From Methanomassiliicoccaceae archaeon (GTDB lineage Archaea; Thermoplasmatota; Thermoplasmata; Methanomassiliicoccales; Methanomassiliicoccaceae): a stretch of DNA of 64,000 bases. The DNA is taken from NCBI GenBank assembly GCA_963728405.1, contig CAVSJV010000017.1, forward strand, positions 320,001 through 384,000, given 5' to 3'. Of this stretch, positions 33,738-34,429 are shown piece by piece. Position numbers and translations under genes: made by a program. The notes under the pieces were generated by a model that worked only from the letters and a program-made list of their open reading frames with translations, was not told the origin of the DNA and did no database searches. The stretch's first letter is position 1. Each line of letters opens with the position of its first letter.

Positions 33738-34010
33738 TCACCCCTTGAGCTCCTTGCTGATGACCAGACGATACAAGATAGACTCCTCGGCGGTCTCGCT
33801 CTTCCTTCTTATCTGAATAATTCGACCGGGGGTTATGGGACCTTCGATACGCTCCATGAGCCGGATACAGGCATCATCCCTCCGGATCTTGGGTAGCTGG
33901 TCTTTAGTTATCCTCAATTTGGCCAAGACTTTCTCGGCCTCCTGCTCCGATAGCAGGGAATGCTCTGGCACGAGATCGTGCTCTAAAACATGTAAATCCG
34001 ACTCGACCAC
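33738..34010 (-). CDS. rpoH: DNA-directed RNA polymerase subunit H
   Basis: HDLVPEH, QLPKI, IRRKSETA, YRLV. Confidence 0.95.
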   Translation of the reverse strand: MVESDLHVLEHDLVPEHSLLSEQEAEKVLAKLRITKDQLPKIRRDDACIRLMERIEGPITPGRIIQIRRKSETAEESILYRLVISKELKG

Positions 34011-34132
34011 CTAATTCACCTCGCCCTTGAATACTTGGAAATCGTTTTTACTAAGAGTCAGGGTTATAAAAGACCACCGCACTGGCTTTCCGAACGTTGT
34101 ACCTTCCATCGTTCTTCTACCTCTCTCCAGGG

Positions 34133-34273
34133 CGGGCCCGCGGGGATTTTCGGAGCGCACGGGAAGGCCGCGCACCTTTCGAACCCCGGACCACCTGGTT
34201 AAAAGCCAGATGCTCTTTCTAGGGATGGCGATTTGTTTAGGACCGCCGTCCTACCTAGCTGAGCTACGGGCCC
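34133..34273 (-). tRNA. tRNA-Lys(UUU) with two non-canonical introns (34217-34252, position 20/21; 34147-34177, position 59/60)
   Basis: Spliced product GGGCCCG-TA-GCTC-AGCTAGGTA-GAGC-A-TCTGG-CTTTTAA-CCAGG-TGGTC-CGGGG-TTCGAAT-CCCCG-CGGGCCC-G is a 74-nt cloverleaf; both inserts form bulge-helix-bulge motifs; CCA is not encoded. Confidence 0.93.
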
Positions 34274-34429
34274 ATTGCAAGCTAGTAGGCATTGCAGAAC
34301 CCCATGTAAAGACTCAAATTATTTAAAGGTTCCTATTGGAGGGGAACCAGGGGTCCGAACGACGACGGTTCTCGTACTTCGGCCCCCTGCACGGCGCCTC
34401 GCAATATGATCGGCCCCATATATGATATG

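Follow-up and report, generated by a model that had tools for sequence, protein, structure and literature searches.

Can a tRNA gene that is interrupted in two of its loops still serve its cell, and if so, which enzyme would take the inserts out? The question is raised by a minus-strand locus at positions 34133-34273 of a 64,000-nt stretch of DNA, hereafter the window (contig CAVSJV010000017.1, positions 320,001 to 384,000, assembly GCA_963728405.1), from a Methanomassiliicoccaceae archaeon. The locus is a 141-nt tRNA-Lys(UUU) gene that runs from G1 to the discriminator G, with CCA unencoded, and carries one insert in the D-loop and another in the T-loop, each framed by a bulge-helix-bulge (BHB) motif. 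Comparison with related sequences suggests that it is very probably a working gene, whose two introns would be removed by the cell's own splicing endonuclease, an EndA of the alpha'2 type.

Anatomy of the gene and register of its splice sites

Five segments make up the locus, all on the minus strand. Exon 1 (34253-34273, 21 nt) holds the 5' strands of the acceptor stem and D-stem and the D-loop through nt 20, where intron 1 (34217-34252, 36 nt) enters at D-loop position 20/21. Exon 2 (34178-34216, 39 nt) carries the 3' strand of the D-stem, the anticodon arm with UUU, the variable loop, the 5' strand of the T-stem and the T-loop to nt 59; intron 2 (34147-34177, 31 nt) follows at T-loop position 59/60, and exon 3 (34133-34146, 14 nt) supplies nt 60, the 3' strands of the T-stem and acceptor stem and the discriminator G. 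Both introns were delimited from sequence and fold. Once the two inserts are removed the exons sum to 74 nt, and it is solely on this form, with the pieces cut by coordinates, that ARAGORN calls a tRNA-Lys(ttt). This call bears out the identity, coordinates, insert lengths and anticodon given in an earlier, sequence-only reading of the locus. Removal of a single insert produced no Lys call by ARAGORN on either half-spliced form, and the form that keeps insert 1 gave one spurious Gly(ccc) in intron mode.

The two inserts share a core of two 3-nt bulges on opposite strands with a 4-bp helix between them. In intron 1 the central helix CUAG/CUAG is formed by the D-loop (34258-34255) and the 3' end of the insert (34222-34219), and the bulges are GUA and AAA; cutting each bulge after its second base yields the spliced D-loop AGCUAGGUA. 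Its inner stem pairs GGACGGCG with CGCCAUCC over 8 positions, with a C-A mismatch at the fourth. Two unpaired bases, A14 and G15, separate the D-stem from the central helix, so that the 3' cleavage site of intron 1 lies in a 2-by-3 internal loop. Intron 1 is hence a relaxed motif, HBh' or bulge-helix-loop-like (BHL-like) in the terms of the literature.

In intron 2 the T-loop (34183-34180) and 34152-34149 pair as the central helix UUCG/CGAA, flanked by the bulges AAA and AAU, and the outer helix is the 5-bp T-stem, which adjoins directly. This insert had been described as a strict BHB. The adjoining T-stem agrees with that description, while the inner stem counts only 2 bp when read in direct register and 9 bp when the C beside CGAA is allowed to bulge, which makes the label slightly generous; intron 2 is a near-strict hBHBh' motif. 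The motifs listed for both inserts were all found at the locus, and both appear in its unconstrained minimum free energy fold (-68.5 kcal/mol; z = -4.38, with none of 200 shuffles equally stable).

A fold alone says little about the exact point of cleavage, for which intron-less relatives are more informative. The exon join of the window gene aligns, with no gap or extra base, to the intron-less orthologues found in three genomes of the same order (described below), in agreement with the intron positions 20/21 and 59/60 and with the proposed rule of cutting after the second base of each bulge. We consider this match the strongest check of splice sites that can be made from sequence alone.

The sequence-only reading had also expected that scanners would overlook the gene, and they do. 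ARAGORN found no tRNA anywhere in the unspliced 64-kb window, and Rfam gave no match in it at the gathering threshold. When RF00005 was run across the genome with E up to 10 there were 46 matches, none of them at the tRNA-Lys(UUU) locus.

Distribution across the order and beyond

A DNA search matched the gene in 41 of the 41 genomes of the order, its own included. The exons are almost invariant throughout. Full-length genes with both inserts were present in 38 genomes; the other three (G029, G033 and G037), all from one family and with genome sizes of 1.4-1.5 Mb, carry a tRNA-Lys(ttt) without interruption, which ARAGORN detects directly.

For a wider view we scanned one genome per species with an exact pattern consisting of exon 1, a D-loop insert ending in CUAGAR, and the start of exon 2. 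The version with a D-loop intron was found in at least 120 species records, which probably overlap in part with the 38 two-intron relatives. Because the pattern demanded a D-loop insert, the following configurations are conditional on it: among the 120 matches listed, 65 loci have D-loop and T-loop introns, 41 have three introns (D-loop, 37/38 and T-loop), 5 have D-loop and 37/38 introns and 3 have the D-loop intron only, while 2 further loci with D-loop and 37/38 introns have an unresolved 3' end and 4 could not be parsed. These last two groups were excluded from the counts given below. Record titles among the matches listed read Thermoplasmata, Thermoplasmatota, Methanomassiliicoccales, Methanomassiliicoccaceae, Methanomassiliicoccus, Methanobacteriota, Euryarchaeota and 'archaeon', with one record each titled 'Methanomicrobia' and 'bacterium'. 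The closest named copies among them, 90.3% and 89.6% identical to the window gene, are titled Methanomassiliicoccus sp.

The T-loop intron has been lost in some lineages, and both introns in one family. Such introns had been called uncommon in euryarchaeal-type lineages. This is indeed what reviews state, yet more than 100 species have the gene as a fixed feature. Two side observations concern its variants. Examples of the three-intron form (L049, L062, L065 and L068) come from records titled Thermoplasmata, Methanobacteriota or Methanomassiliicoccales, and in three loci (L133, L152 and L087) the T-loop intron is far longer, 66-119 nt against about 30.

Conservation and covariation of the intron structures

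To compare the introns we parsed 152 loci, which after removal of identical sequences left 120 distinct genes, with 3' ends set by the best pairing score. The central helix of intron 2, which no search pattern forced, has its 4 pairs in all 112 distinct genes with a T-loop insert, and the T-stem adjoins it in 112 of 112; its 3' strand is CGAA in 83 and CGGA, with one U-G pair, in 29. In none of the 120 distinct genes does the outer helix of intron 1 adjoin the central one, indicating that relaxation is general for this intron rather than a defect peculiar to one locus.

Inner stems are maintained as well. Counted from the splice sites without alignment, 87% of cells pair at stem positions 1-6 of intron 1 among 106 distinct introns, against 33-59% when the partner is shifted by 1-3 bases, and as many as six pair types occur at one position. 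For covariation, 74 distinct two-intron genes were aligned with MAFFT and scored against the structure written from the fold of the window gene. Overall, 93.3% of 3,294 cells pair, against 33-51% with the 3' partners slid, and both partners change at each of the 7 pairs in the intron 1 stem and each of the 9 in the intron 2 stem. None of 500 shuffles attained the covariation score, a control that is inflated by the kinship among the aligned sequences and that concerns a structure derived from one of them.

From such conservation one might suspect that the introns do more than persist, for instance by guiding or gating modification of the D-loop or T-loop, or by disrupting the target site of an integrating element or virus. 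The D-loop intron is retained by at least 120 species records and by each of the order's 38 two-intron genes, pairs 1-3 of its inner stem are nearly fixed (GC in 100, GC in 95 and AU in 89 of 106 unique introns), and the same two sites are reused in other tRNAs of the genome. Nevertheless, sequence outside the stems varies freely in both introns, and the losses in relatives mean that neither intron is indispensable. At 36 and 31 nt, moreover, the introns are below the size of box C/D guide RNAs, which weighs against a guide function. We regard a function of this sort as unlikely.

The splicing endonuclease

We then asked which enzyme could cut these motifs. PF01974 strikes a single open reading frame (ORF) twice and nothing else in the genome, indicating a single EndA gene. 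The ORF (C17:421102-422208, outside the window) encodes 369 aa, in which the N-terminal (PF02778) and catalytic (PF01974) domains each occur twice in tandem; this two-unit (N+C, N+C) protein points to an alpha'2 subunit architecture, a matter that the sequence-only reading had singled out for checking. NF006795 aligns over residues 19-368 with 340 bits, short of its 501-bit cut-off. The closest solved relatives are the fused Methanopyrus kandleri enzyme (5x89, E 4e-36), the alpha subunit of Aeropyrum pernix and the alpha'2 enzyme of Archaeoglobus fulgidus (1r0v). In the C-terminal unit, Y, H and K align to Y295, H303 and K334 of 5x89, reported as the catalytic residues of the M. kandleri enzyme (PMC5829648); the N-terminal unit was judged by eye.

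Between FYG and LQLSL the catalytic unit has 6 residues, against 16 between YYG and LRLSL in A. pernix alpha, where the span includes the Crenarchaea-specific loop (CSL), and the alignment of the N-terminal unit has the same gap. This comparison, made from printed alignments, covers the CSL/L1 site, and the protein may have loops of the L2 or L3 type. By these alignments EndA is best read as an ordinary alpha'2 enzyme that lacks a CSL-like insert. A full-length two-unit EndA is present in 41 of 41 genomes of the order, including the three with an intron-less tRNA-Lys(UUU). RtcB is also present in the genome (601 bits).

Published views differ as to the cutting of relaxed motifs by alpha'2 enzymes. 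According to two reviews, alpha4 and alpha2 enzymes cut canonical BHBs only, Euryarchaeota have single canonical introns, and non-canonical introns go with (alpha-beta)2 and epsilon2 enzymes that carry specific loops (PMC4033280, PMC4090602); the first of these presents Korarchaeum as the only archaeon that combines an alpha2 enzyme with non-canonical introns (PMC4033280). In vitro, the alpha'2 enzyme of A. fulgidus was inefficient on a relaxed HBh' D-loop intron, that of M. kandleri pre-tRNA-Glu (PMC5829648). One group, on the other hand, reports that BHL-like motifs are cut by homodimeric as well as heterotetrameric enzymes (PMC8707768).

It had been proposed that the organism would need an endonuclease of broad specificity, tolerant of relaxed substrates, or else a fixed order of removal, in which the T-loop intron would go first and the D-loop intron after it. 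The A. fulgidus result, the link drawn in the reviews and the relaxed form of intron 1 in every gene compared all speak for this proposal. Against it stands the genome itself, whose lone EndA is of the ordinary two-unit type, short at the CSL site, and of the same architecture in the relatives that have no introns to remove from this tRNA; the report on BHL-like motifs also speaks against a special enzyme. As for a fixed order, the pair probabilities of the central helices (0.66-0.68 in intron 1 and 0.86-0.98 in intron 2) stay the same after in silico removal of the other intron. Each BHB folds alike with or without the other intron, so that nothing in the folding calls for a set sequence of removal. 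Neither a special endonuclease nor ordered splicing thus finds support, and we consider either quite improbable.

The plain reading of a relaxed D-loop intron fixed in more than 100 species with an alpha'2 EndA is that this enzyme cuts it. We infer that the EndA of this genome cuts both motifs and that no order of removal is needed.

Is the locus a working gene?

A gene of this kind should be required by the cell and should have the means to be expressed. The only other Lys tRNA that ARAGORN finds in the genome is a Lys(ctt) with anticodon CUU (C3:62576-62651). BLAST detected no second copy of exon 2 in the 2.73-Mb assembly, nor did an intron-less tRNA-Lys(UUU), which would have undermined the need for this gene, turn up in it. 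As far as the assembly shows, the locus is the sole tRNA-Lys(UUU) gene. Of the 102 lysine codons in six window ORFs confirmed by Pfam, 14 are AAA.

A TATA-like box, TTTAAATA, lies at 34320-34327 on the minus strand, 47-54 nt upstream of the tRNA 5' end, and a box resembling TTTAAATA or TTATATA is kept at the same distance in 38 of the 38 loci printed. It is likely the promoter of the tRNA gene, and from its position RNase P would have a leader of some 20-25 nt to remove. The presumed leader region between the box and the tRNA 5' end (34274-34319, minus strand) is unusually conserved within the family, as in the blocks ctttacatgggg...ttctgcaatgcc...agcttgc in loci L001-L024.

We propose the following course for the maturation of this tRNA. 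Transcription would start from the TATA box about 50 nt upstream, and the precursor would fold so that each insert offers two 3-nt bulges parted by a 4-bp helix. The single alpha'2 EndA would cut after the second base of each bulge, RtcB would join the three exons, and RNase P, 3' trimming and CCA addition would complete the 74-nt tRNA.

Several points weigh against this reading. The A. fulgidus experiment means that the cutting of intron 1 by a loop-less alpha'2 enzyme is not established. With intron 1 in place, a nearest-neighbour model assigns the D-stem a pair probability of only 0.10-0.14. Although all four pairs of the intron 1 central helix occur in each of the 120 distinct genes, the search pattern had preset this helix in 82 of them, where its constancy hence adds no independent support. 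Assembly completeness is 93.75%, and an intron-less copy could sit in the absent part. Finally, spliced RNA was not seen, and splicing is deduced from DNA sequence.

RNA libraries do not change this balance. Their contigs cover only small shares of the stretch (0.07-0.22), and those compared at 85% likeness contained no joints and no spliced form of the lineage. Four contigs from relatives, 85-95% alike, run unspliced across intron 2, one of them at depth 306, and the remaining matches are intron-less tRNA-Lys genes from other organisms. Since DNA can occur in RNA libraries, these contigs neither support nor oppose splicing.

That the locus is a decayed or disrupted pseudogene in which the inserts stay, as the blank results of standard finders and the missing spliced RNA might suggest, is hardly credible for the sole tRNA-Lys(UUU) of a genome that uses AAA codons, given exons nearly invariant across the order, compensatory changes that preserve the BHBs and a TATA box conserved upstream. 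A working gene with two introns removed by the alpha'2 EndA is the reading that we retain, with high confidence.

Other non-canonical tRNA introns in the genome

To assess whether tRNA-Lys(UUU) stands alone, we scanned both strands of the genome for BHBs, and 216,117 single candidates and 614,801 pairs were each spliced in silico and given to ARAGORN. Besides tRNA-Lys(UUU), three spliced loci supply anticodons that ARAGORN had missed, Thr(CGU), Leu(CAA) and Arg(UCU), so that non-canonical introns are predicted in at least three further tRNAs of the genome.

The tRNA-Thr(CGU) gene (C3:273677-273776, minus strand) has a 26-nt intron (273731-273756) at about D-loop 20/21, with central helix GCGG/CCGC and an A-A mismatch between this helix and the D-stem. 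ARAGORN makes no call at the locus, which scores 57 bits with the Rfam tRNA model, and the locus with its intron was matched over most of its length in most families of the order. In tRNA-Leu(CAA) (C4:221968-222074, minus strand) a 22-nt D-loop intron (222029-222050) has central helix GGUC/GACC, which no outer helix adjoins; ARAGORN miscalls this locus as a tRNA-Met with an anticodon-loop intron. The tRNA-Arg(UCU) gene (about C7:154665-154790, plus strand), some 180 nt upstream of a tRNA-Trp, carries introns of 20 nt at 37/38 and of 21 nt at T-loop 59/60. Its 59/60 intron has a UUCG/CGAA helix identical to that of tRNA-Lys(UUU) intron 2, and the locus with both introns was matched over most of its length in much of the order.

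Two further loci deserve mention. At C5:290981-291081 (plus strand) there is a 101-nt tRNA-like sequence that scores 39.6 bits with the Rfam tRNA model and has no ARAGORN call, intron mode included; its acceptor and T arm resemble those of the tRNA-Trp on C7. At C2:175544-175643 (plus strand) the ARAGORN call 'tRNA-Trp(cca), 24-nt intron' reads better by eye as a tRNA-Arg(CCG) with a 37/38 intron, which would supply an otherwise absent anticodon. No tRNA-Ser(CGA) was found in the tRNA searches of the genome. Most calls on spliced candidates were judged by eye to be artefacts, with the end borrowed from a known tRNA or a further long intron needed. Among the rejected candidates, an 'Arg' with three introns at C2:1432-1560 resembles coding sequence, and the ARAGORN 'Arg(cct)' at C3:140064-140182 does not resemble a tRNA.

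A broader reading can be put forward tentatively, namely that the alpha'2 EndA of Thermoplasmata, without a CSL-like insert, naturally cuts relaxed BHBs, and that the D-loop intron is ancient, class-wide and selected rather than a recent insertion. It would cover at least four of the genome's tRNAs, as well as the tRNA-Lys genes of relatives, which have up to three introns.

Neighbouring genes

As the sequence-only reading had noted, the tRNA gene lies directly upstream of rpoH, which encodes RNA polymerase subunit H (33738-34010, minus strand; Pfam PF01191; NCBIfam NF007129, 90 bits, cut-off 83) and heads an rpoH-rpoB''-rpoB' run downstream of the tRNA. Between the two genes there is a 32-codon ORF with an ATG start (34014-34109, minus strand; stop at 34011-34013), which terminates one base ahead of the rpoH start. 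Its start region ATGGAAGG, with a purine-rich stretch before it, is kept in many relatives, and its 32-aa product has no match in Pfam or NCBIfam. McrA is present in the genome, so the organism is a methanogen.

Significance and comparison with known systems

An entire order of methanogens and many other Thermoplasmata keep two or three non-canonical introns in an essential tRNA despite an ordinary alpha'2 enzyme. Together, tRNA-Lys(UUU) and EndA form a clean natural pair of substrate and enzyme with which to probe how architecture limits intron motifs. Should the alpha'2 enzymes of Thermoplasmata indeed cut relaxed BHBs, the accepted link of relaxed or multiple introns to loop-bearing (alpha-beta)2 or epsilon2 enzymes would fail for an entire class of archaea. 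A further consequence is practical: ARAGORN overlooks tRNA-Lys(UUU) and three other tRNAs, and the tRNA sets of such genomes falsely look incomplete.

The kind of intron is already known, since BHB introns at 20/21 and 59/60, and up to three per tRNA, have been described (PMC4090602, PMC4033280). What differs is the host, an alpha'2 lineage that reviews list with single canonical introns only (PMC4090602). Our literature search, outside of which lay subscription journals, GtRNAdb and RefSeq annotation, found no paper on such introns in Thermoplasmata or Methanomassiliicoccales, and GtRNAdb may already list the gene.

Compared with the canonical 37/38 hBHBh' introns of other organisms with an alpha'2 EndA (A. 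fulgidus, Thermoplasma, Haloferax and Ferroplasma; PMC8707768), the enzyme architecture is the same and so is the core of 3-nt bulge, 4-bp helix and 3-nt bulge. Intron 2 meets the canonical form almost fully, while intron 1 differs in having no adjacent outer helix. Canonical introns sit in the anticodon loop, whereas those of tRNA-Lys(UUU) are in the D-loop and T-loop.

In their positions the introns resemble those of Thermoproteales and ARMAN-2, whose tRNAs carry up to three BHB introns at sites that include 20/21 and 59/60, removed by EndA and ligated by RtcB as we propose here (PMC4033280, PMC4090602, PMC3239211). Three is given as the maximum per tRNA and tied to Thermoproteales in PMC4033280. 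As these sources describe them, the enzymes of those organisms are (alpha-beta)2 or epsilon2 with a CSL or ASL, in contrast to the alpha'2 enzyme without such a loop here, and their introns look recently spread between tRNAs, whereas the pair in tRNA-Lys(UUU) appears old and vertically kept.

The closest single known case, the pre-tRNA-Glu(UUC) of M. kandleri (Kaneta et al., 2018; PMC5829648), is likewise euryarchaeal and has two introns, of which the one in the D-loop is a relaxed HBh' intron; its host enzyme lacks the specific loop, as does the EndA of this Methanomassiliicoccaceae archaeon. Three differences separate them on the account given there: the second intron of M. kandleri is canonical (37/38), while both are non-canonical in tRNA-Lys(UUU); its EndA is an (alpha-beta)2 heterotetramer, against a fused two-unit enzyme of the alpha'2 type here; and it is the case of a single species, whereas the two- or multi-intron tRNA-Lys(UUU) gene is found in more than 100.

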